Origin: Agathobacter sp.
Lineage (GTDB): Bacteria > Bacillota_I > Bacilli_A > RF39 > UBA660
Reading direction: 5' to 3'
DNA: 44,293 bases
NCBI GenBank assembly: GCA_963628465.1
Contig: CAVGEW010000003.1
Location: 10,634 to 54,926, forward strand
Position 1 is the stretch's first letter; each line of letters begins with the position of its first letter. Shown here piece by piece: positions 7,364 through 43,322 of the stretch. The position numbers and the translations under genes are program-made. The notes beneath the pieces are model-generated. The model did no database searches. It was given only the letters and a program-made list of their open reading frames with translations, and was not told the origin of the DNA.

Positions 7364-8998
7364 ATGAGTAAAATAAAGATTTTTGGTTTGGGAGGACTTT
7401 CCGAAAGTGGAAAAAATTCCTATGTTGTTGAAGTAGATGATGAAATATTCGTTTTTGATGCTGGTATTAAGTTTGCTAGCGGAAACCTATTAGGTATTGA
7501 TTACATTATGCCTGATTTTAGTTATCTTGTTAAGAATAAAAAAAGAATTAAGGGTTTATTTATAACTCATGGACACCCTGAAAATATGGGGGCGGTTTAT
7601 GATTTACTTAAAGATATTCATACTTTAAAGGTTTATGCAACAAAATATACTAAATTTGAGCTGATGGAAGATGGAGTTAAAGAAGCGAATATTGAACTTA
7701 TTAAGCCTCATAAGAAAATTAATTTTGGTAATGTTTCTATATTTCCAATTTCTGTATCCCATTCTGTGCCTGATGCAGTAATGTATGTTATAAATACTAA
7801 AGATGGAGCTATTTGTTATACTGGTGATTTTATTATTGACCCAAGTATGCAAGGGGTTTATGATATGGATTTAGGTAAAATAGCTTACATAGGTAAACAA
7901 GGGGTTTTATGCCTTTTGTGTGAATCATCTTTCGCAGAAAAGAGTGGACATACTTCACCAAAACATAGACTTGTTAGTTTCTTTGAAGATGTAATTAACC
8001 ATCATGACAAAAGATTAATATTTTCTGTTTTACCTACGCATTTGTATACAATCTCCGAAATATTTGAAGCTGCGGCTAATTCACATCGCAAAATAATCCT
8101 TATGGGAAAAAGATTACAAAACGTTCTTAATTTTGCTACTAGCGAAGGCTATATAAAGTACAATGAAGAATTACTTGGAGATTTATCAAATATTGAAGAT
8201 GAAGATTCAATATTGCTTGTCATGGATGATAGAACAACGCCATATGCAAACATGAATAAGATATTAAATGGCTATGATAAGTTTATTACCTTAAGACCTA
8301 CGGATACGGTAGTTTTTGCTGAACCTAGATATGATTCAACAGAAAAAGTTTTGGTAAGACTTCAAAATGAATTAGCAAAATTTGGTTGTGATATTGTAAC
8401 AATAGACAAAGACAAAGAAATATTACATCATGCATCTCGGGAAGATTTAATGCTTATGATAAAGTTAATTAACCCTAAGTTTTATATGCCTGTGAAGGGT
8501 GAATATAGATACATGGTAAATAATGCTAATCTAGCAAGTCATTTAGGTATTTTAGATAGTAATATTTTACTTAAACAAAATGGTGACGTTGTAACTTTTG
8601 AAAATGGTAAGTTATTAGATAATTTTGCTAAAGTTAAAGTAGATGATGTCTTGATAGATGGTACAAGCAATGATGATATTGGGGGTCTTGTTATCAAAGA
8701 TAGAGAAATGCTTTCTGAAAATGGTATAGTTTTAATTAGTGCAACAGTAGATAAAAAAGATAAAGTACTTTTAGTTGGACCTGAAGTTACTACTAGAGGA
8801 TTCATTTATGTTAAAGATTCTGCAGATATGATTAAAGAAATAAAAAGTATTTGTGAGGATATTATAAATAGAAATATAACCCCTAAATTTATAGATTTTA
8901 ATCAAATAAAAATCGAAATAAGAGAAGAATTAAGTCGATACTTATATGAACAAACAGAATGTAAACCAATGATTATTGCCGTTGTTCAAGAGGTATAA
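7364..8998 (+). CDS. rnj: Ribonuclease J family protein (metallo-beta-lactamase/beta-CASP) with degenerate metal-binding motifs
   Basis: 544 aa with the RNase J layout: IFGLGGLSE.GKN.YVVE, GLFITHGHPENMG (canonical HGHEDHIG), SHSVPDA, YTGDF, HHASREDL and MPVKGEYRY (canonical HGEYR). Confidence 0.8.
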   Translation: MSKIKIFGLGGLSESGKNSYVVEVDDEIFVFDAGIKFASGNLLGIDYIMPDFSYLVKNKKRIKGLFITHGHPENMGAVYDLLKDIHTLKVYATKYTKFELMEDGVKEANIELIKPHKKINFGNVSIFPISVSHSVPDAVMYVINTKDGAICYTGDFIIDPSMQGVYDMDLGKIAYIGKQGVLCLLCESSFAEKSGHTSPKHRLVSFFEDVINHHDKRLIFSVLPTHLYTISEIFEAAANSHRKIILMGKRLQNVLNFATSEGYIKYNEELLGDLSNIEDEDSILLVMDDRTTPYANMNKILNGYDKFITLRPTDTVVFAEPRYDSTEKVLVRLQNELAKFGCDIVTIDKDKEILHHASREDLMLMIKLINPKFYMPVKGEYRYMVNNANLASHLGILDSNILLKQNGDVVTFENGKLLDNFAKVKVDDVLIDGTSNDDIGGLVIKDREMLSENGIVLISATVDKKDKVLLVGPEVTTRGFIYVKDSADMIKEIKSICEDIINRNITPKFIDFNQIKIEIREELSRYLYEQTECKPMIIAVVQEV

Positions 8999-9004
8999 TT
9001 TTAA

Positions 9005-9037
9005 AAAAATCACTCATACTATAAATGGGTGATTTTT
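9005..9037 (+). terminator. Intrinsic terminator/attenuator after rnj
   Basis: 13-bp stem AAAAATCACTCAT / ATGGGTGATTTTT (one G-U pair) with a 7-nt loop. It ends 3 nt before the next start codon. Confidence 0.55.
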
Positions 9038-9039
9038 AA

Positions 9040-9456
9040 ATGGATGATGTAAAAGCATTAAATGAATTGTATAAAATTGTAGCAATGGGTATCATAGGCA
9101 TTGATGAGGTAAAGGGACATATTAGTGATAAAACTTTAGCTAAAACTATGTCGGACGCTAAGAAAAAGTACTTGGTAAATAAGATGGATATCGTAGGCAT
9201 GCTTGAAGATAAAGGTGAAGAACCTGCTTCTGTAAGTGTGGTAGCTAAGACCTTTAGTGAAATTTATACAGGAATTGAACTAATAAAATCAGATGATTCG
9301 AAGATAGCTAAGATGCTTACCGAAGGTACGAATAAAGGAATTATTAAAGTAGAACAAATTTTAAATTCTAAGCTAGATAAAAAGGTAACTCGGCTAGCGG
9401 AAGAATTGCTTGAATTGCTTGAATTTCAAATAAAGTCTTGGAAAGAATATCTATAA
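9040..9456 (+). CDS. Hypothetical helical protein
   Basis: 138-aa ORF with predicted helical, charged composition. No family recognised. Confidence 0.55.
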   Translation: MDDVKALNELYKIVAMGIIGIDEVKGHISDKTLAKTMSDAKKKYLVNKMDIVGMLEDKGEEPASVSVVAKTFSEIYTGIELIKSDDSKIAKMLTEGTNKGIIKVEQILNSKLDKKVTRLAEELLELLEFQIKSWKEYL

Positions 9457-14085: not shown

Positions 14086-14820
14086 ATGTATGTACAAAAA
14101 ATAAAAAAATCTTTATTAATGCAAAATAAATTAAATTTAAAAGGCAACTTATATCATAAAACTCAAATTGATTTTGCTTATAACAATAACCGTTTAGAAG
14201 GGTCAACCATAACTAGTGATGAAACAGAAAGCATCTATGATACTGGAACAATTTTAACAAATAAAGATAAAGTAATAAATTTAAAAGATGCAACTGAAAC
14301 AAAAAATCATTTTACATTATTTAAATTTATGCTTGATACTTTAGATGAACCATTAACGGAAGATTTAATTAAAAAATATCATTTTATTTTAAAAAGTGGA
14401 ACCCTTAAAGATGATGAAGTTGGAATAATAAATATCGGTGAATATAAAAGCCTTAAAAATTTTGTTGGAAACATAACTACATCATTACCTAAGAATGTCC
14501 CAGCTGATATGAAAAAATTACTAGATTGGTACAATAAAATAGATAATAAAACTGTTAAAGATATTATAGAATTTCATGTAAGGTTTGAAAAAATTCATCC
14601 TTTTCAAGATGGCAATGGTAGAGTAGGCAGAATGATTATTTTTAGGGAATGTTTAGTAAATAATATAATGCCATTTTATATTGAAGAAAGAAATAAACCT
14701 TTTTATATCAGAGGAATAAAAGAGTATCAAACAAATAATGAAAAAGGTTATTTAATCGATACGTGCTTAAATAGTCAAGATAATTATGAAAGGTTAGCTA
14801 AGTATTTTTTAGAAGATTAA
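14086..14820 (+). CDS. fic: Fic family protein (AMPylation-type Fic motif)
   Basis: HPFQDGNGRVGR (aa 171-182, nt 14596-14631) matches HxFx(D/E)GNGRxxR. The N-terminal NNRLEG (aa 34-39) resembles the inhibitory (S/T)xxxE(G/N) helix and retains the Glu. Confidence 0.85.
   Translation: MYVQKIKKSLLMQNKLNLKGNLYHKTQIDFAYNNNRLEGSTITSDETESIYDTGTILTNKDKVINLKDATETKNHFTLFKFMLDTLDEPLTEDLIKKYHFILKSGTLKDDEVGIINIGEYKSLKNFVGNITTSLPKNVPADMKKLLDWYNKIDNKTVKDIIEFHVRFEKIHPFQDGNGRVGRMIIFRECLVNNIMPFYIEERNKPFYIRGIKEYQTNNEKGYLIDTCLNSQDNYERLAKYFLED
14787..14816 (+). repeat. 30-nt direct repeat, copy 2 (inside the fic 3' end)
   Basis: Exact match to 12152-12181. Confidence 0.9.
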
Positions 14821-37390: not shown

Positions 37391-37649
37391 TCAATCACCT
37401 TTACAAATTATACCACACTTTTAATCATTTTTGTAGTGCCTTATGTTATTTTGACATAAATAGACATTTTGAAAAAAATGATAAGTTTTGTCGAATATAA
37501 TGAAATTATTTTTTATTTGTTTTATTATATATTTGGTGATAGGATTATGCGTTTAGAATACTATATTAATATTATGATGGAAAGGCTAGATTTTGGTTCT
37601 TTAAATACATTGTTTTTAGATGTGGAAGAAATTAGTAGCTCTCAAGATA

Positions 37650-37678
37650 TTGACTAAAGTTAAAATTTGGGATATAAT
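37650..37678 (+). promoter_or_regulatory. Sigma-A promoter of gpsB
   Basis: TTGACT (37650-37655), a 17-nt spacer, then TATAAT (37673-37678). Confidence 0.55.
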
Positions 37679-37700
37679 TTTTTTGTTAGTGGGTGATATT

Positions 37701-38024
37701 ATGTATAGCGATCGATTATATTTGACTGCTCAAGAAATACTTGAGAAAGAATTTAAAGTTGATGCCAGGGGATATCGACCTCAAGAAGTTGATAAGTTTT
37801 TGGATATGGTTATCCGTGATTATACGGAATATGGTAATATTATCAAAAAGTTAGAAAAAGATGTAAAAGATTTAACTGATGATAATATTAAATTAAAGCA
37901 AGAAATTCGTAGACTTCAAGAAGTTGCTAGTACGAGCGAAGCGCCTTCGAGAAGTATTAATAATGTTGATTTATTAAAAAGAATAAGTCAACTTGAAAAA
38001 GTAGTTTATGGAAATAATGAATAA
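37701..38024 (+). CDS. gpsB: Cell-cycle protein GpsB (DivIVA-domain)
   Basis: LTAQEILEKEFKVDARGYRPQEVDKFLDMVIRDY plus a coiled coil. The track start at 37620 lies upstream of the promoter, so the ATG at 37701 is preferred. Confidence 0.85.
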   Translation: MYSDRLYLTAQEILEKEFKVDARGYRPQEVDKFLDMVIRDYTEYGNIIKKLEKDVKDLTDDNIKLKQEIRRLQEVASTSEAPSRSINNVDLLKRISQLEKVVYGNNE

Positions 38025-38372
38025 TCTAGTGGCAAATGCTGCATAAAATAGTTATGTAGAGGAAAGTCCATGCTCGCACAGACTGAGATGTCTGTAAGTG
38101 TTTGTGCTTAGGGAAAAAATAACCTAAGGTAGCGTAAGCTAACGGCTTCGAGGAAACCTTAAATGGTTTTATTAGATGTAAAAGTGCCAAAGAGACGAGC
38201 TGCATTGGAAACTTTGCAGGTGGAACGTGGTAAACCCCGCAAGCGAGAAACCCAAATTATGGTAGGGGAGTTTAAAATAGAGAAATGAATCTATTTTAGG
38301 TGCCTGTTGGTAAGATAAATATTTGCCTCTTTCTTAGGAAAGAACAGAACATGGCTTATTCAGGTTATTTAT
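38025..38372 (+). ncRNA. rnpB: RNase P RNA, bacterial type B
   Basis: GAGGAAAGTCCATGCTCGCAC (from 38059), GGAACGTGGTAAACCCCGCAAGCGAGAAACCCAAAT and ACAGAACATGGCTTAT (38344-38359) match the conserved Bacillus-type RNase P RNA core. It lies directly downstream of gpsB, as in B. subtilis. The ends are approximate, within about 10 nt. Confidence 0.88.
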
Positions 38373-38394: not shown

Positions 38395-38868
38395 TTGAAC
38401 GAAATTGGTGAGGAGCTTCAGTATGCAAGGGAGTCATCAGGTGTAAGTTTAAATGAAGCAAGTAAAGACCTTGGTATAAAGGTAGAAATACTCGAAAATA
38501 TCGAAGATGGAAGGTCGGGAGCATTTAAGGATATATTTGAACTCAAAGAATATATTTCAAGTTATGCCAAATATTTAGGTTTAAATGAACAAGAGTTAAT
38601 AGATGAATTTAATGAGTATATGTTTGAATATACTTCTAAGATTCCTATTAAAGAGATTGAAAAGACTATTGAACTTAAAATAAAAGAAGAAAAGAAAGAT
38701 GATACGATATCATCACCTTATACAAGGCAACCTAAAAAATATAATAAATGGGTATATATTACCTTATATGCGTTTATATTTTTGCTTGTGTTGTGTGCTA
38801 TTATTTGGTCAGTTAAACAAGTTACAATAAATAGAAAAGTTACTGACACAATAAGTTATGGAAAGTAG
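38395..38868 (+). CDS. rodZ: RodZ-like helix-turn-helix membrane protein
   Basis: TTG start 10 nt after AAGGAG. N-terminal XRE-type HTH (LQYARESSGVSLNEASKDLGIKVEILENIEDG) and one TM (VYITLYAFIFLLVLCAIIW). It lies upstream of pgsA, as ymfM does in Bacillus. Confidence 0.7.
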   Translation: MNEIGEELQYARESSGVSLNEASKDLGIKVEILENIEDGRSGAFKDIFELKEYISSYAKYLGLNEQELIDEFNEYMFEYTSKIPIKEIEKTIELKIKEEKKDDTISSPYTRQPKKYNKWVYITLYAFIFLLVLCAIIWSVKQVTINRKVTDTISYGK

Positions 38869-38876
38869 AGTGTAGT

Positions 38877-39485
38877 ATGAATTTACCGAATAAAATAACA
38901 ATGGCTAGAATATTTTTGTCAATACTATTATTAGTTATGCTTTTGATGCCTTGGTATAGTTTAGGTGTGGAATTTCCTGTATATCAAGTTGCAACAGTTA
39001 ATGTTAATTTGAAATATATTTTAGCAGGTATTATCTTTTTGATAGCATCAACCTCTGATTTTATTGATGGTTATTTAGCTCGTAAGAATGATATGGTAAC
39101 AGATTTTGGCAAAGTTATGGACGCTATTGCGGATAAAATGCTTGTGAATGGAGTTTTAATAATTCTTGCTTATGATAGGTTAATATCTATTGTTATTCCT
39201 GTGGTTATCATAACTAGAGATATTGTTGTAGATTCTTGCAAAATGATTTCTGGACAAAATGGCAAAGTAGTTGCAGCTTCAATTTTGGGTAAGATAAAAA
39301 CAATTTGTATGATGAGTGGCTTAACTCTTACAATGTTTTACAATTTACCATTTGAGCTTATTGGATTTCCAGTATCTGACATTCTACTTATTGCAGCCGT
39401 AGTTCTTTCAGTTATCTCAGGTTCACAATATTTCTATGGTGTTAAAGATATATTATTTCCCGAAGAGAAGAAAAGTAAAAAATAA
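38877..39485 (+). CDS. pgsA: CDP-diacylglycerol--glycerol-3-phosphate 3-phosphatidyltransferase
   Basis: LPNKITMARI plus the exact CDP-alcohol phosphatidyltransferase signature DGYLARKNDMVTDFGKVMDAIAD (DGx2ARx8Gx3Dx3D). Confidence 0.9.
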   Translation: MNLPNKITMARIFLSILLLVMLLMPWYSLGVEFPVYQVATVNVNLKYILAGIIFLIASTSDFIDGYLARKNDMVTDFGKVMDAIADKMLVNGVLIILAYDRLISIVIPVVIITRDIVVDSCKMISGQNGKVVAASILGKIKTICMMSGLTLTMFYNLPFELIGFPVSDILLIAAVVLSVISGSQYFYGVKDILFPEEKKSKK

Positions 39486-39501
39486 ATATTTATAAACTAG
39501 G

Positions 39502-39534
39502 ACCCATTTGAGTTGAAACTTAAGTGGGTTTTTT
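39502..39534 (+). terminator. Intrinsic terminator after pgsA
   Basis: ACCCATTTGAG / CTTAAGTGGGT (two G-U pairs) with a 6-nt loop, followed by TTTTTT. Confidence 0.65.
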
Positions 39535-39552
39535 AGTGATTCCCTTGAAAAA

Positions 39553-39574
39553 ATCTTTTTTACGTAAAAAAGAT
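39553..39574. promoter_or_regulatory. Perfect 22-nt palindrome (candidate operator or hairpin)
   Basis: ATCTTTTTTAC|GTAAAAAAGAT, flanked by TCCC...GGGA. Confidence 0.3.
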
Positions 39575-39614
39575 GGGATATTTTAATTGAATAGAGTAAT
39601 ATTCAAAAATTTAT

Positions 39615-39642
39615 AGAACGAAAATTTTGATTTTTTCGTTCT
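39615..39642. other. 10-bp perfect stem-loop in the intergenic region
   Basis: AGAACGAAAA (39615-39624) / TTTTCGTTCT (39633-39642) with an 8-nt loop. Confidence 0.4.
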
Positions 39643-39739
39643 TCAAATATATTAAATTTTACTCTTTTTTACTGAATTTTGCGTAAATTACTAGTTTTTT
39701 TAAGATTAATACGTTATAATAAGAAAGAGGTGAAAAAAG

Positions 39740-40471
39740 TTGAAAGTTAAAAATTCTGAAGTGACATTTTGGTTCCAAAAAATAGCAAATCCTAAAGAAT
39801 ATGTAGAAGTTTTTAATGATAAATTAAATGAATTTTTTTATGAATTTACTGTTAAAGGAGTACCTGCTGATATTTCTGCTTTTATTCCTAGAATGTCATC
39901 AATTTCTAAATCTAGTCACAGTGTTATAGAAGTTTCACAGGTAAATGCTAAATTAAGAACAAATTTTGATAGTGATTATTTTAAAGATTATAAAAAATGC
40001 CTTGATTATGTTAAAGAAAGAGCATTAAAATTATATGAAGTATTAAACGAAAATAATATTAATTGCATATATACCGCATTATTTATGAACTTTGAAGAAA
40101 AAGATGAAAATGCAGTTTCAAAAATTCAGAAACAATTTCTAAAAGAAGAAATTAATGATTCAGTTGAAGAAATGGGAATAAGATATTCTCAAACCATTAA
40201 TGATAAATATTATAAAATAATAACCTATAATAATTCTTTTAATGTTCAACTTGAAAAAGTAATTGATGATAGTAATGGAGAAATTCTTCTTCCTTTAATA
40301 TCATTAAAAGAAGCATCTTCTATTGAAAACTATTTAAACTTTTCGATAGAAATTAATGATAAGTTATCTTTTAATGTCGTTTCAAATTATAAAACATCAA
40401 ATAATGAACTACAAGAAATATTTGCTTTAATGAATAATGAATTAGAAAAGGAACTTAAAAAAAATAATTAA
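39740..40471 (+). CDS. Hypothetical protein, gene 1 of an uncharacterised three-gene operon
   Basis: 243 aa with a TTG start 6 nt after AGAGGTGA. Soluble and Asn/Lys/Glu-rich. No motif recognised. Confidence 0.6.
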   Translation: MKVKNSEVTFWFQKIANPKEYVEVFNDKLNEFFYEFTVKGVPADISAFIPRMSSISKSSHSVIEVSQVNAKLRTNFDSDYFKDYKKCLDYVKERALKLYEVLNENNINCIYTALFMNFEEKDENAVSKIQKQFLKEEINDSVEEMGIRYSQTINDKYYKIITYNNSFNVQLEKVIDDSNGEILLPLISLKEASSIENYLNFSIEINDKLSFNVVSNYKTSNNELQEIFALMNNELEKELKKNN

Positions 40472-40484
40472 TCTGGGGGGAAAT

Positions 40485-40769
40485 ATGTATATAAACAATT
40501 TAGATTTACAAAATATTTATAATAATCAGCTTATTCCATATGTTGTTTCCGTTTCTGGTAACGTAAATAATAGTGGAATTTTTGGCGATTTAAATGATGT
40601 ATTTGAAAATTTATCGATTAGTGTAAAACCATTGAAAGATAGAGAGCGTATTTTTAGTATTGCAAGCGACTTTGTGCGGTTTGGAAATGAAGAAAATAAG
40701 ATATTAGATGAGTATATTAGTAGTATAAGTGTAGAAAGAAAGAATAATTTATTAGATTATTATGATTAA
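40485..40769 (+). CDS. Hypothetical protein, gene 2 of the three-gene operon
   Basis: 94 aa with a GGGGGG RBS, 13 nt after the gene 1 stop. No motif recognised. Confidence 0.55.
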   Translation: MYINNLDLQNIYNNQLIPYVVSVSGNVNNSGIFGDLNDVFENLSISVKPLKDRERIFSIASDFVRFGNEENKILDEYISSISVERKNNLLDYYD

Positions 40770-41352
40770 AGAATTAATAAAGTTTACAAGTGAATTATTT
40801 CCTTCAATTTCGCCATACACTAAAGAAAATGTAATACATGCTATAGAACAATTTGATTATGATAAACTTGAATGGTTTATGAATTATCCAATTAAAGAAT
40901 TATCTCAAGGCGATATTATTGGTGAAATTCCTTTTGTTTATTTTGATGATGATGGTAACGAAAGGGCTTTTGTACAACCAAGTATTATATTATCTAATAC
41001 TTGTGATGTTAGTAGAGATAAATATATTATAATAGCGCCATTATTTGAATATAATAACTTATATGATAAAAATGTTATAAAACTTATAAAATCTAATAAA
41101 TATTATGATAAAATGTGTTTTACTAATAGCAATATCGATGATTATTTTGTTGATTTTACAAGAGCTATTTCATTTAATAGAAAATTACTTTTAAAATTAT
41201 TAAGAAAAAAAACTAGTGTTAAATATTCTTTAAATTCATATGGGTATTATTTATTAATTATTAAATTATCCATTTACTTTATGAGACCAGAAGATATAGA
41301 CGTTAATGAATATAGAATTGATAAAACTAAGTTACCAGAACCAATTTGTTAA
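40762..41352 (+). CDS. Hypothetical protein, gene 3 of the three-gene operon
   Basis: 196 aa, overlapping gene 2 by 8 nt. It contains LSQGDIIGEIPFVYFDDDGNERAFVQPSIILSNTCDVSRDKYIIIAPLF, a beta-strand-rich pattern only vaguely reminiscent of SH3-like-barrel toxins such as MazF/PemK. Confidence 0.55.
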   Translation: MIKELIKFTSELFPSISPYTKENVIHAIEQFDYDKLEWFMNYPIKELSQGDIIGEIPFVYFDDDGNERAFVQPSIILSNTCDVSRDKYIIIAPLFEYNNLYDKNVIKLIKSNKYYDKMCFTNSNIDDYFVDFTRAISFNRKLLLKLLRKKTSVKYSLNSYGYYLLIIKLSIYFMRPEDIDVNEYRIDKTKLPEPIC

Positions 41353-41362
41353 TAATTTACAC

Positions 41363-41391
41363 AAAAACAGGTGATAAACCTGTTTTTGCTT
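41363..41391 (+). terminator. Intrinsic terminator after the three-gene operon
   Basis: AAAAACAGGT (41363-41372) / ACCTGTTTTT (41378-41387) with a 5-nt loop; the T-rich tail continues. Confidence 0.8.
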
Positions 41392-41441
41392 TTAATTTTT
41401 ACAAATATAGTCTATAATATTGTTGCGGAAGGAAGTAAAAC

Positions 41442-42311
41442 ATGAAAAAAATAAAAAACATCATTAAACTTATACGCTACAAACATTGGTTAAAAAATTT
41501 TCTTGTTTTTTTCCCAATATTTTTTAATTTGCAATTTTTTGAAATTGATAGTTTTTTAAAAGTAGTAGTAGGATTTTTTTCTTTTTGTTTTATATCATCA
41601 TCTATCTACATAATAAACGATATTAGGGATTGTGAAAAAGATAAATTACATGAAGTGAAAAAAAATCGCCCGATAGCAGCTGGATTAATTTCAAGAAAAG
41701 AAGCATTTTTTATTTCAATGGCACTCACAATTGTGAGTGTATCACTAAATACTTTAGTGATACATAATATATATTCTTTATTATTAATTTTATTATATTA
41801 TTTTTTAAATATTTTATATTCTTTTGGTTTGAAAAATGTTCCCATAATTGATGTAATAATATTGGTTTCTGGTTTTGTAATTAGAGTTATTTATGGGGCT
41901 AGTATTTTATCTATAAATATTTCTAATTGGTTATATTTGACTATTATGTCTGGTTCGTTTTTTATGGGATTCGGAAAAAGAAGAAATGAAATTATAAAAC
42001 AAGGAAGCAATTCACGAAAAGTGTTATCATATTATACTCGGGAATATTTAGACAAATTTATGTATGTATGTTTGATTTTAACACTTATGTTTTACTCATT
42101 GTGGTCGATTGATACTTTAACAACAGAAAGATTTGGTGATTATATGATATATACCATTCCTTTGGTATTAGTCATATTTATGAAATATTGTTTAGATATT
42201 GAAGGCGATTCCTATGGTGATCCGGTTGATATTATAACATCGGATAAAATATTAATGGGATTAATATTGTTGTTGGGATTAACTATGATATTCTTAATAT
42301 ATGTGTGGTAA
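41442..42311 (+). CDS. UbiA-family prenyltransferase, decaprenyl-phosphate phosphoribosyltransferase-like
   Basis: Polytopic. YIINDIRDCEKDKLHEVKKNRPIAAG matches the NDxxDxxxD..H..K..RP.A.G first Asp-rich motif of the DPPR-synthase (Rv3806c-like) subgroup. Confidence 0.75.
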   Translation: MKKIKNIIKLIRYKHWLKNFLVFFPIFFNLQFFEIDSFLKVVVGFFSFCFISSSIYIINDIRDCEKDKLHEVKKNRPIAAGLISRKEAFFISMALTIVSVSLNTLVIHNIYSLLLILLYYFLNILYSFGLKNVPIIDVIILVSGFVIRVIYGASILSINISNWLYLTIMSGSFFMGFGKRRNEIIKQGSNSRKVLSYYTREYLDKFMYVCLILTLMFYSLWSIDTLTTERFGDYMIYTIPLVLVIFMKYCLDIEGDSYGDPVDIITSDKILMGLILLLGLTMIFLIYVW

Positions 42312-42317
42312 GATAAC

Positions 42318-43322
42318 ATGAAAAAAATTGATGTATTAGATTTTGATAAGACTATTTATAAAAAGGATTCTTCGAAACAATTTTTCTTATTTTGTATAAC
42401 AAAAAAGTGGAGTTTAGTAAAATATTTGACTGGAATTATAATTAGTTTTCTGTTATATTTTCTTAGACTAATTTCAAAAGAAAGTTTAAAAGAATATTAC
42501 TTTAAATTTGTTAGAGAATTTGATGATATTGATAAAATTGTTGATTCTTTCTGGAAAATAAATAAAGATTATATTAATAATGATTTATTAAATGGCTGTA
42601 AAAACGATATTGTAGTTGTTTCTGCATCTCCTGAATTTTTGCTTAAAAATGTATGTAAAGAGCTTAAAATAAAAAAAGTTATAGCATCTAAAATTGATAA
42701 GAATACTGGTAAGTTTGAAATGAAAAATTGCTATGGAGAGGAAAAAGTCAATCGTATAAAAAAAGAATTGAATAATTTTGAGATTATTGACTTTTATTCT
42801 GATTCTTTAAGCGATGAACCATTGGCTAGAATATCAAAAAATCCTTATTTAGTCAAAAAAAATAAAATAGAAAAATGGAACTTTGATAATAAAAAAAACA
42901 ATGACTTAAGTGAAGTGATTAGATATTTAATTATTGGTGTTTTAACGATGGTAATAACATTAGGAACTTATTGCTTGTTAACGATATCAATATTAGATCC
43001 CCAAAATAAGCTTGAATTGCAAACAGCAAATTTTATTTCTTGGTTTATTGCAATGTTATTTTCCTACATTGCAAATAGAATATATGTTTTTAAAAGCCAA
43101 AGTTCAAATTTTATTAAAGAATTTTTAAATTTTATGGTATCTAGAATTTTAACTTTGTTTGTTGATATGTTTGGAATGTTTTTATTTGTGAGTGTACTTT
43201 TTGTAAATGACCGATTTTCTAAATGTTTTGTACAAGTATTAGTAGTTATTTTAAACTATATCATTAGTAAATTTATTGTATTTAGGAGGAAAAAAAATGA
43301 ATTATATAAAAAAAATATTTAA
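42318..43322 (+). CDS. Fusion protein: HAD-IB-like phosphatase domain plus GtrA-family membrane domain
   Basis: N-terminal HAD motif I DFDKT (aa 9-13) and later YSDSLSD. The C-terminal ~140 aa has 4 TM segments with the GtrA-like pattern RYLIIGVLTMVITLGTY...FISWFIAMLFSYIANRIYVF...VSRILTLFVDM...LNYIISKFIVF. Confidence 0.7.
   Translation: MKKIDVLDFDKTIYKKDSSKQFFLFCITKKWSLVKYLTGIIISFLLYFLRLISKESLKEYYFKFVREFDDIDKIVDSFWKINKDYINNDLLNGCKNDIVVVSASPEFLLKNVCKELKIKKVIASKIDKNTGKFEMKNCYGEEKVNRIKKELNNFEIIDFYSDSLSDEPLARISKNPYLVKKNKIEKWNFDNKKNNDLSEVIRYLIIGVLTMVITLGTYCLLTISILDPQNKLELQTANFISWFIAMLFSYIANRIYVFKSQSSNFIKEFLNFMVSRILTLFVDMFGMFLFVSVLFVNDRFSKCFVQVLVVILNYIISKFIVFRRKKNELYKKNI

Follow-up and report, generated by a model that had tools for sequence, protein, structure and literature searches.

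Organization of the locus

We analysed a stretch of 44,293 nucleotides (nt) of DNA from Agathobacter sp. (assembly GCA_963628465.1, contig CAVGEW010000003.1, positions 10,634 to 54,926 of the forward strand), hereafter called the window, and concentrated on a compact operon of three small genes located downstream of pgsA. We call these genes A, B and C. They recur together in distant bacteria, and the product of the third one is predicted to fold like the MazF-type toxins. The features of the locus, in window coordinates, are the following:

38877-39485, plus strand: pgsA, a CDP-alcohol phosphatidyltransferase gene (Pfam CDP-OH_P_transf, 1.2e-32)
39496-39537, plus strand: intrinsic terminator of pgsA (RNA fold of -19.3 kcal/mol, z = -5.45, then U6)
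39615-39642, strand not assigned: 10-bp hairpin in the junction between pgsA and the cassette (-12.3 kcal/mol, z = -3.6)
39673-39739, plus strand: upstream region borne by the cassette, with a -10 box TATAAT (39715-39720) and a Shine-Dalgarno sequence GAGGTG (39727-39732)
39740-40471, plus strand: gene A, 243 amino acids (aa), TTG start, taken from the list of open reading frames (ORFs) and the sequence
40485-40769, plus strand: gene B, 94 aa
40762-41352, plus strand: gene C, 196 aa
41362-41400, plus strand: intrinsic terminator closing the operon, an 11-bp stem with a T-rich tail (hairpin 41362-41388, -14.5 kcal/mol, z = -5.2)

Genes A and B are separated by a 13-nt gap, whereas B and C overlap by 8 nt. 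All the coordinates and spacings of the initial annotation hold, and the two strong terminators that it placed after pgsA and at the end of the operon were recovered by the folding calculations. The TTG start of A is backed by the GAGGTG Shine-Dalgarno sequence 7 nt upstream and by the alignment of its N-terminus with homologs.

The terminator of pgsA isolates the cassette from upstream transcription. In the closest copy of the cassette (L137 among our loci), in which A is 87% identical, the similarity to the window begins at about 39673 and the DNA farther upstream is unrelated. Furthermore, in five divergent loci TATAAT and GAGGTG precede gene A at a nearly constant distance from each other (6-9 nt). 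Because both elements are conserved with L137 and in the five divergent copies, the cassette appears to carry its own expression signals, including a putative promoter, for which no good -35 box was found upstream of A. At the other end, the position that corresponds to the closing terminator is occupied in other loci by non-homologous hairpins.

Regarding the hairpin at 39615-39642, it sits in the 254-nt junction that separates the cassette from the pgsA terminator, is not part of the block shared with L137, and resembles a terminator on the minus strand. No minus-strand gene ends at it, and it may be left over from an older arrangement.

Conservation of the three genes as a unit

Loci were gathered from 49 relatives of C found by homology searches, 21 relatives of A found by a profile search and 33 matches in reference genomes, and hidden Markov models (HMMs) of A, B and C were run over the DNA fetched around these relatives. 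According to the models, A lay directly upstream of C in nearly every fetched locus, and the order A-B-C was found in all the 44 loci that had both A and C. In each of these 44 loci the space between A and C was filled by an ORF of 82-129 aa, and at most junctions the neighbouring genes overlapped by a few nt, frequently 4, or were up to about 20 nt apart. Since each of the three has homologs and the order recurs in 44/44 loci, A, B and C are real genes and not chance ORFs.

The mean pairwise identity among 33 non-redundant trios was 28.5% for A, 19.6% for B and 38.4% for C, and the divergences of the three proteins were correlated. B is therefore the fastest-evolving member of the trio.

The 44 loci span Bacilli, Clostridia, Halanaerobium, spirochaetes, an acidobacterial (Holophagales) genome and a Leptospira phage record. 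Occurrence across taxa is patchy: in Bacillota, Spirochaetota and Acidobacteriota, carriers are scattered among Bacilli, Paenibacillus, Clostridia, Halanaerobium, Treponema and further spirochaetes, with one Holophagales genome; the scan used a single peptide pattern and the count is therefore a lower bound. Cultured carriers are Halalkalibacterium halodurans, Heyndrickxia acidicola, Paraclostridium tenue JCM 6486, Robertmurraya andreesenii DSM 23948 and Cytobacillus eiseniae DSM 26675. Among phage records the trio was present in 1 of 50,697 (a Leptospira phage), and at least 2 of the 2.9 million viral contigs of IMG/VR carry it (a lower bound from two peptide patterns). No copy was found among 72,556 plasmids.

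Departures from the A-B-C arrangement were few. Three loci have another protein in place of A, as described below. In one locus (L038), C is preceded by two different, unrelated proteins. The sole C gene found without A and B (L039:4579-5022) is truncated at its N-terminus (147 aa) and abuts an IS3-type transposase. In Robertmurraya andreesenii (L021), gene C and the sequence downstream of it are duplicated in tandem (7909-8478 and 8880-9455); the two C proteins are identical save for a 2-residue N-terminal extension, and they reflect either a true duplication or an error of assembly.

Insertion after pgsA

In order to see what follows pgsA in related genomes, we used 80 loci obtained by a metagenome scan with the PgsA of the window, in which pgsA is 56-92% identical. 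The synteny gpsB-rodZ-pgsA was found in every one of those reaching far enough upstream, and A, B or C in none of the 80. The trio is thus not a core set at the pgsA locus. In the closest relatives the DNA identity of 84-87% stops at window positions 39474-39495, which is the stop of pgsA. Distant relatives continue as pgsA-recA-rny, in agreement with the initial remark that the trio stands where recA would be expected, and close relatives each have something different. Therefore, the trio is inserted after pgsA, in a variable slot.

Just downstream of the trio (41442-43322, plus strand) there are a UbiA-family gene, which resembles decaprenyl-phosphate phosphoribosyltransferase slightly below the NCBIfam cut-off, and a gene for a HAD-IB phosphatase fused to a GtrA transmembrane domain. 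They look like a cell-wall glycopolymer pair. Both were absent within 5 kb in all 80 relatives. Because these downstream genes are missing as well, the right-hand edge of the insertion is undefined and the variable region extends beyond the trio. No att-like flanking repeats or tRNA were found at the cassette of the window.

None of the other trio loci shares flanking genes with the window. The cassette is horizontally transferred and moves as a unit.

Genomic contexts in other bacteria

Several copies of the trio lie at the ends of prophages. In Halalkalibacterium halodurans it has a holin-amidase on one side and an integrase on the other, and in Heyndrickxia acidicola the tail tape-measure region on one side and YolD and integrases on the other. 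Another prophage-end copy adjoins a serine recombinase, Bro-N and an ImmA/CI-type switch, and one more trio belongs to an integrative element that also carries a tyrosine integrase and a D5 primase-helicase.

Other copies are neighbours of defence genes. One of them is directly beside Fic, a type I restriction-modification system with an integrase-associated hsdS array, and Schlafen AlbA_2 (SLFN_AlbA_2). Another one is directly beside GmrSD, SLFN-g3/UvrD-like helicases and a type IIG restriction-modification enzyme. In a further context the trio and McrBC form a two-system islet between carB and rplJ. Finally, some copies stand alone among housekeeping genes, including that of the window.

We also classified the 102 nearest neighbours of 28 non-redundant trios. 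The commonest Pfam family was Phage_integrase (6 hits), followed by Methyltransf_31 (4) and N6_Mtase, a DNA methylase (3). Several families had two hits each, including Methylase_S, Amidase_3, YolD and the SLFN-g3 helicase, and the remainder were housekeeping families. These statistics come from about 30 non-redundant loci and are raw counts without a matched background. A substantial part of the loci shows the generic marks of defence systems, namely sporadic occurrence, horizontal spread and a place beside defence genes or in prophage accessory slots.

Two observations on these neighbourhoods should be added. An ORF of the window (14086-14820, plus strand) shares 26% identity along 202 residues with the Fic-domain protein found beside the trio in three of the loci (L007-L009). 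In the Leptospira phage record (L049; KF114877, 78952-84152) the trio is directly followed by a 'mobilome CxxCx11CxxC' protein and a radical-SAM cluster of the His-Xaa-Ser type (hxsA, D, B, C); all three trio genes are labelled as hypothetical there, and the whole is an accessory block of a phage or plasmid.

Protein C

The AlphaFold2 model of C, built with 29 homologs, had a pLDDT of 86 and a pTM of 0.80, with the core above 90. When this model was compared with the PDB by Foldseek, the 50 best matches were MazF/PemK-type toxins in all cases (50/50), with E-values from 3.6e-4 to 4e-3 and TM-scores, normalised to the target, of 0.53-0.69 over whole MazF chains. Among them were the MazF proteins of E. 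coli, S. aureus, B. subtilis, K. pneumoniae, mycobacteria and D. radiodurans as well as MoxT of B. anthracis. We are therefore confident that the core of C (approximately residues 50-160) is predicted to adopt the SH3-like barrel fold of MazF/PemK, with extra N- and C-terminal helices. The initial annotation had noticed a loose MazF/PemK resemblance in this protein; the resemblance stands at the level of the fold, but it was not confirmed from the sequence or from the catalytic residues.

C matches the PHROG family phrog_4575, which has no function assigned (1.2e-24). An exhaustive profile search gave 926 clusters at 50% identity with E<=1e-3, and 350 of them with E<=1e-10, all unannotated. 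Among the best 150 hits listed, the full-length ones were stand-alone proteins of about 180-230 aa, the shorter ones covered part of the profile, and no fusion of C to another domain was found.

Across 90 representatives of the family, the residues Q49, D51, C81, K168 and R175 were invariant, and G50, D82, N112 and G161 nearly invariant. In addition to the barrel, C has around 45 extra N-terminal residues, which include a strongly conserved FPSIxPYT motif and were modelled less confidently, and the extra C-terminal helices. In the PDB sequence searches with profiles of C, A and TIGR04255, a hit to Vps25 (E = 0.003) was judged spurious.

Protein A and its exchange with TIGR04255 proteins

The AlphaFold2 model of A was also of high quality (pLDDT 90, pTM 0.85) and consisted of two similar halves, each one a beta-alpha-beta3-alpha unit. 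We can confidently describe A as a conserved protein of about 245 aa from an unannotated family, with a predicted pseudo-duplicated alpha/beta architecture. Its match in PHROGs is phrog_22817 (1.9e-19), again a family with no function. The conserved motifs are IPDDAPxEIPR, HS, TNYD, KYYxN and LDINDRYxFN, and H60-S61 is near-invariant.

Searches with A gave no Pfam or NCBIfam family at threshold and only sub-threshold Pfam matches of chance level; the Pfam search over 21 members of the A family returned only noise, and the PDB sequence profile searches with A and with TIGR04255 gave no credible hit. At the structural level, AdoMetDC/prozyme was the only PDB hit of Foldseek with E<1e-3 (1e-4), and it was rejected as the fold of A, with a TM-score of about 0.3, a root-mean-square deviation above 16 Å and no global superposition. 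Platforms of class I major histocompatibility complex proteins were a low-probability PDB match, also discarded, and an unnamed viral protein in BFVD (E 3e-7, TM-scores 0.49/0.57) did not lead to a fold assignment.

In three loci the pair B-C is intact, with the C-terminal motif of B kept, and a TIGR04255-family protein of the length of A is directly upstream (NCBIfam, 1e-31 to 1e-35):

L025, 6962-7705: TIGR04255 protein in the place of A
L030, 6923-7648: TIGR04255 protein in the place of A
L031, 1028-1756: TIGR04255 protein in the place of A

NCBIfam describes the TIGR04255 family as 'sporadically distributed' and of unknown function. The TIGR04255 model did not hit the A of the window, nor any of 10 divergent A homologs at E<=10, and hhalign of A (A5) with the TIGR04255 proteins gave a probability of 0.4%, which is not significant. 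Nevertheless, their equivalent position upstream of B-C argues that A and the TIGR04255 proteins may do the same job. We found no paper that mentions TIGR04255 or the two PHROG families. Slightly downstream in L025 and L031 there is an ORF for an AAA/OLD-like ATPase, judged by eye from its N-terminal sequence.

Protein B

In B only the C-terminal part of around 45 residues is kept, roughly as F-x-E-x-R-x-F-T-x-E-E ... G-x-N-F-F-D, and the N-terminal part is hypervariable. The protein is acidic in most loci, with an isoelectric point (pI) of 4.4 in the window and a median of 4.8. No family was found for it in Pfam, NCBIfam, PADLOC or PHROGs. Many longer homologs (L016, L017, L021, L022, L028, L033, L043) have an N-terminal, moderately hydrophobic stretch rich in Ser, Thr and Ala, slightly signal- or anchor-like, in which the 19-residue Kyte-Doolittle maximum is 1.5-1.65; the B of the window, which does not have the stretch, reaches 0.81.

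As the initial annotation stated, none of the three proteins has an assignable motif (no Pfam, NCBIfam or PADLOC family above threshold) and none of those of the window has a 19-residue hydrophobic stretch at transmembrane level. The remote-homology and fold searches did not place them in metabolic or structural families.

Interpretation and alternative explanations

The trio has the anatomy of a conflict system, since it is a self-contained operon with translational coupling, it spreads horizontally, it resides in prophages and defence islets, and it joins a toxin fold to a small, acidic, fast-evolving partner. Furthermore, B is antitoxin-like because it lies upstream of C with an overlap, is acidic in most loci and evolves fastest. 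In a type II toxin-antitoxin operon the small genes are expected to be translationally coupled, the antidote preceding the toxin, and the 8-nt overlap of B and C is an arrangement of this kind. Our best explanation, to which we give about even chances, is that A-B-C forms a three-gene conflict cassette, autonomous and spread by horizontal transfer, which is most likely a toxin-antitoxin-like (TA-like) or abortive-infection-type anti-phage system. The initial suggestion of a defence or toxin-type module gains support from the sporadic occurrence of the intact unit across phyla, from the prophage accessory slots and from the position beside restriction systems, although the function itself remains putative.

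In such a cassette C would be the growth-arresting effector, with a MazF/CcdB fold and its own invariant Q-D-C-K-R set. B would bind and neutralise C, or would tether or bridge it to A, through the conserved C-terminal motif. A would be the sensor or regulator releasing C on infection, with a TIGR04255-family protein as its substitute in some lineages. We infer in this way the toxicity of C, its neutralisation by B, the sensing by A and a phage-defence phenotype. The lone truncated C beside a transposase fits selection against an unguarded toxin, as a single case.

There are several points that weigh against this explanation. Regarding C, neither the protein nor 90 diverse family members had a Pfam match other than noise, PemK_toxin (PF02452) and CcdB (PF01845) included. 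Profile searches against PDB sequences, with profiles of 29 and 90 sequences, found no MazF and no credible hit, and hhalign of C with hand-entered MazF sequences of E. coli and B. subtilis gave a probability below 1%. The catalytic residues of MazF are an Arg (R29 in E. coli, R25 in B. subtilis) and a Thr/Ser (T52 and T48, respectively). When C was placed on MazF by eye from the secondary structure, the Arg was matched by Q73/K and the Thr by a hydrophobic residue. The C proteins are also acidic, with a median pI of 5.3, which is unusual for an RNA-binding toxin. Regarding the other components, PADLOC-DB v2.0.0 gave 0 hits for any of the three proteins at E<=1 and likewise 0 for the TIGR04255-type and Leptospira variants, and Pfam and NCBIfam gave no DNA-binding domain (helix-turn-helix (HTH), ribbon-helix-helix (RHH), AbrB, Phd) in A or B. 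The antitoxins of type II TA systems typically autoregulate through such a domain. Which of A or B would neutralise C is a guess, and many loci, that of the window among them, are flanked by housekeeping rather than defence genes.

Because C is acidic and the catalytic positions of MazF are, by eye, not conserved in it, C may attack a protein, in the manner of CcdB, or may use a different chemistry. The folds of MazF and CcdB belong to the same superfamily. A bolder proposal is an undescribed three-component immune system, in which a MazF/CcdB-fold effector with a different invariant site (Q49, D51, C81-D82, K168, R175), and so with a different activity, would be controlled by a pseudo-duplicated alpha/beta sensor of a new kind, for which TIGR04255 proteins can substitute. 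Such a system would give TIGR04255 and the PHROG families 22817 and 4575 their first functional context. We put this forward tentatively, as a possibility that is rather doubtful at present. In the literature we found no description of the trio, and the papers on MazF-like defence concern a different system, type II Gabija.

Four other explanations were weighed:

i) A module for the addiction or stabilisation of mobile elements that takes no part in phage defence. Here C would be a CcdB-like poison of a protein (e.g. gyrase) instead of an RNase, and B and/or A would be the antidote, so that prophages and islands are not lost. The MazF/CcdB superfamily fold that Foldseek supports for C, its acidity, the lack of evident MazF catalytic residues and the frequent presence of the trio on prophages and integrative elements all suit such a TA module. 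However, many chromosomal copies sit among housekeeping genes with no recognisable mobile element to stabilise, the trio is repeatedly found directly beside restriction systems, and the plasmids, which are the typical home of addiction modules, did not yield a single copy. We consider this explanation unlikely.

ii) A prophage 'moron' that serves the phage by superinfection exclusion through another mechanism, as an anti-defence set or as a lysogeny-control module. Only one phage record and at least two viral contigs carry the trio out of the large collections searched, most copies are outside recognisable prophages, and in the window the trio is kept as a stand-alone island with its own putative promoter and terminator. 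These facts make a moron quite improbable, in spite of the PHROG matches of A and C and of the copies in the lysis-to-integrase slot of prophages, in the Leptospira phage record and in the two IMG/VR contigs.

iii) A small enzymatic or peptide-modification pathway, where A would be an AdoMetDC-like sandwich enzyme, C an enzyme using Cys, Asp, Lys and Arg, and B the substrate or carrier peptide. One could invoke the AdoMetDC/prozyme hits of A, the near-invariant H60-S61 of A, the invariant Cys-Asp pair of C, and the combination of a variable N-terminal and a conserved C-terminal part in B. Nevertheless, those hits do not superpose globally, the trio is not accompanied by any conserved biosynthetic, transporter or regulatory partners, and its distribution and contexts are those of conflict systems. 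We give this pathway very little credit.

iv) An ordinary housekeeping or cell-envelope operon tied to pgsA or to the downstream UbiA/GtrA genes is hardly conceivable, since the position between membrane-lipid and glycopolymer genes is its sole recommendation, and the trio is absent from 80/80 relatives at the pgsA locus, has unrelated contexts in other phyla and has terminators on both sides.

We regard the trio as a plausible, unproven new defence or TA family. If this is true, a new family would be added to the bacterial immune or toxin-antitoxin systems, and the MazF/CcdB fold would have another use, apparently with a different active site. Moreover, the function-less TIGR04255 would be tied to conflict systems. 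If it is not confirmed, this would be one of many uncharacterised accessory cassettes. Since there are cultured carriers, the trio is directly testable.

Other features of the window

Upstream of pgsA there is a class B RNase P RNA (38023-38363, plus strand) that scored 262 bits against a gathering score of 97. It is flanked by a gpsB-like gene (37620-38024) and by a rodZ-like HTH_25 gene (38395-38868), and its class agrees with an organism of low-GC Bacillota or Mycoplasmatota type.

Comparison with known systems

The predicted core of C shares with MazF/PemK (Kid) and CcdB (PF02452, PF01845) the SH3-like barrel and a G-D motif at the start of strand 1. However, C does not have sequence-profile similarity to them, is around 80 residues longer, has different invariant residues and is acidic. 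The likeness to MazE-MazF lies in the small acidic B just upstream of C and in the stop/start overlap, whereas B does not have a MazE/AbrB, RHH or HTH signature and the trio has a third conserved gene, which is A (243 aa in the window).

An effector of MazF fold has a precedent in defence, because GajC of type II Gabija, a validated anti-phage system, is a MazF-like presumed effector that was recognised only by structure prediction (PMC13069673). In that system GajC consists of a MazF domain that is split and holds an insertion of five helices, and it is paired with the UvrD-type helicase GajB (PMC13069673), whereas the trio does not have a helicase or ATPase.

The type III systems ToxIN and AbiQ have toxins of 170-190 aa with a Kid/MazF-like fold, a class similar to that of C, and act by abortive infection. 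Nevertheless, ToxN and AbiQ were not among the 50 best fold matches of C, and PADLOC did not give a hit. A type III TA system was discarded, as there are no tandem direct repeats in 39480-41460 and no Rfam family in the region.

Regarding the tripartite TA systems (the toxin-antitoxin-chaperone systems or TAC, MqsRAC and omega-epsilon-zeta), they are likewise made of three small co-transcribed genes, the third protein of which modulates the toxin-antidote pair. The trio differs from them in gene order and families, and Pfam, NCBIfam and PADLOC detected no SecB-like chaperone, HigBA, MqsRA or zeta/epsilon domain in it. Finally, the TIGR04255 family and the A family resemble each other in being sporadically distributed, in their position upstream of B-C and in their length.

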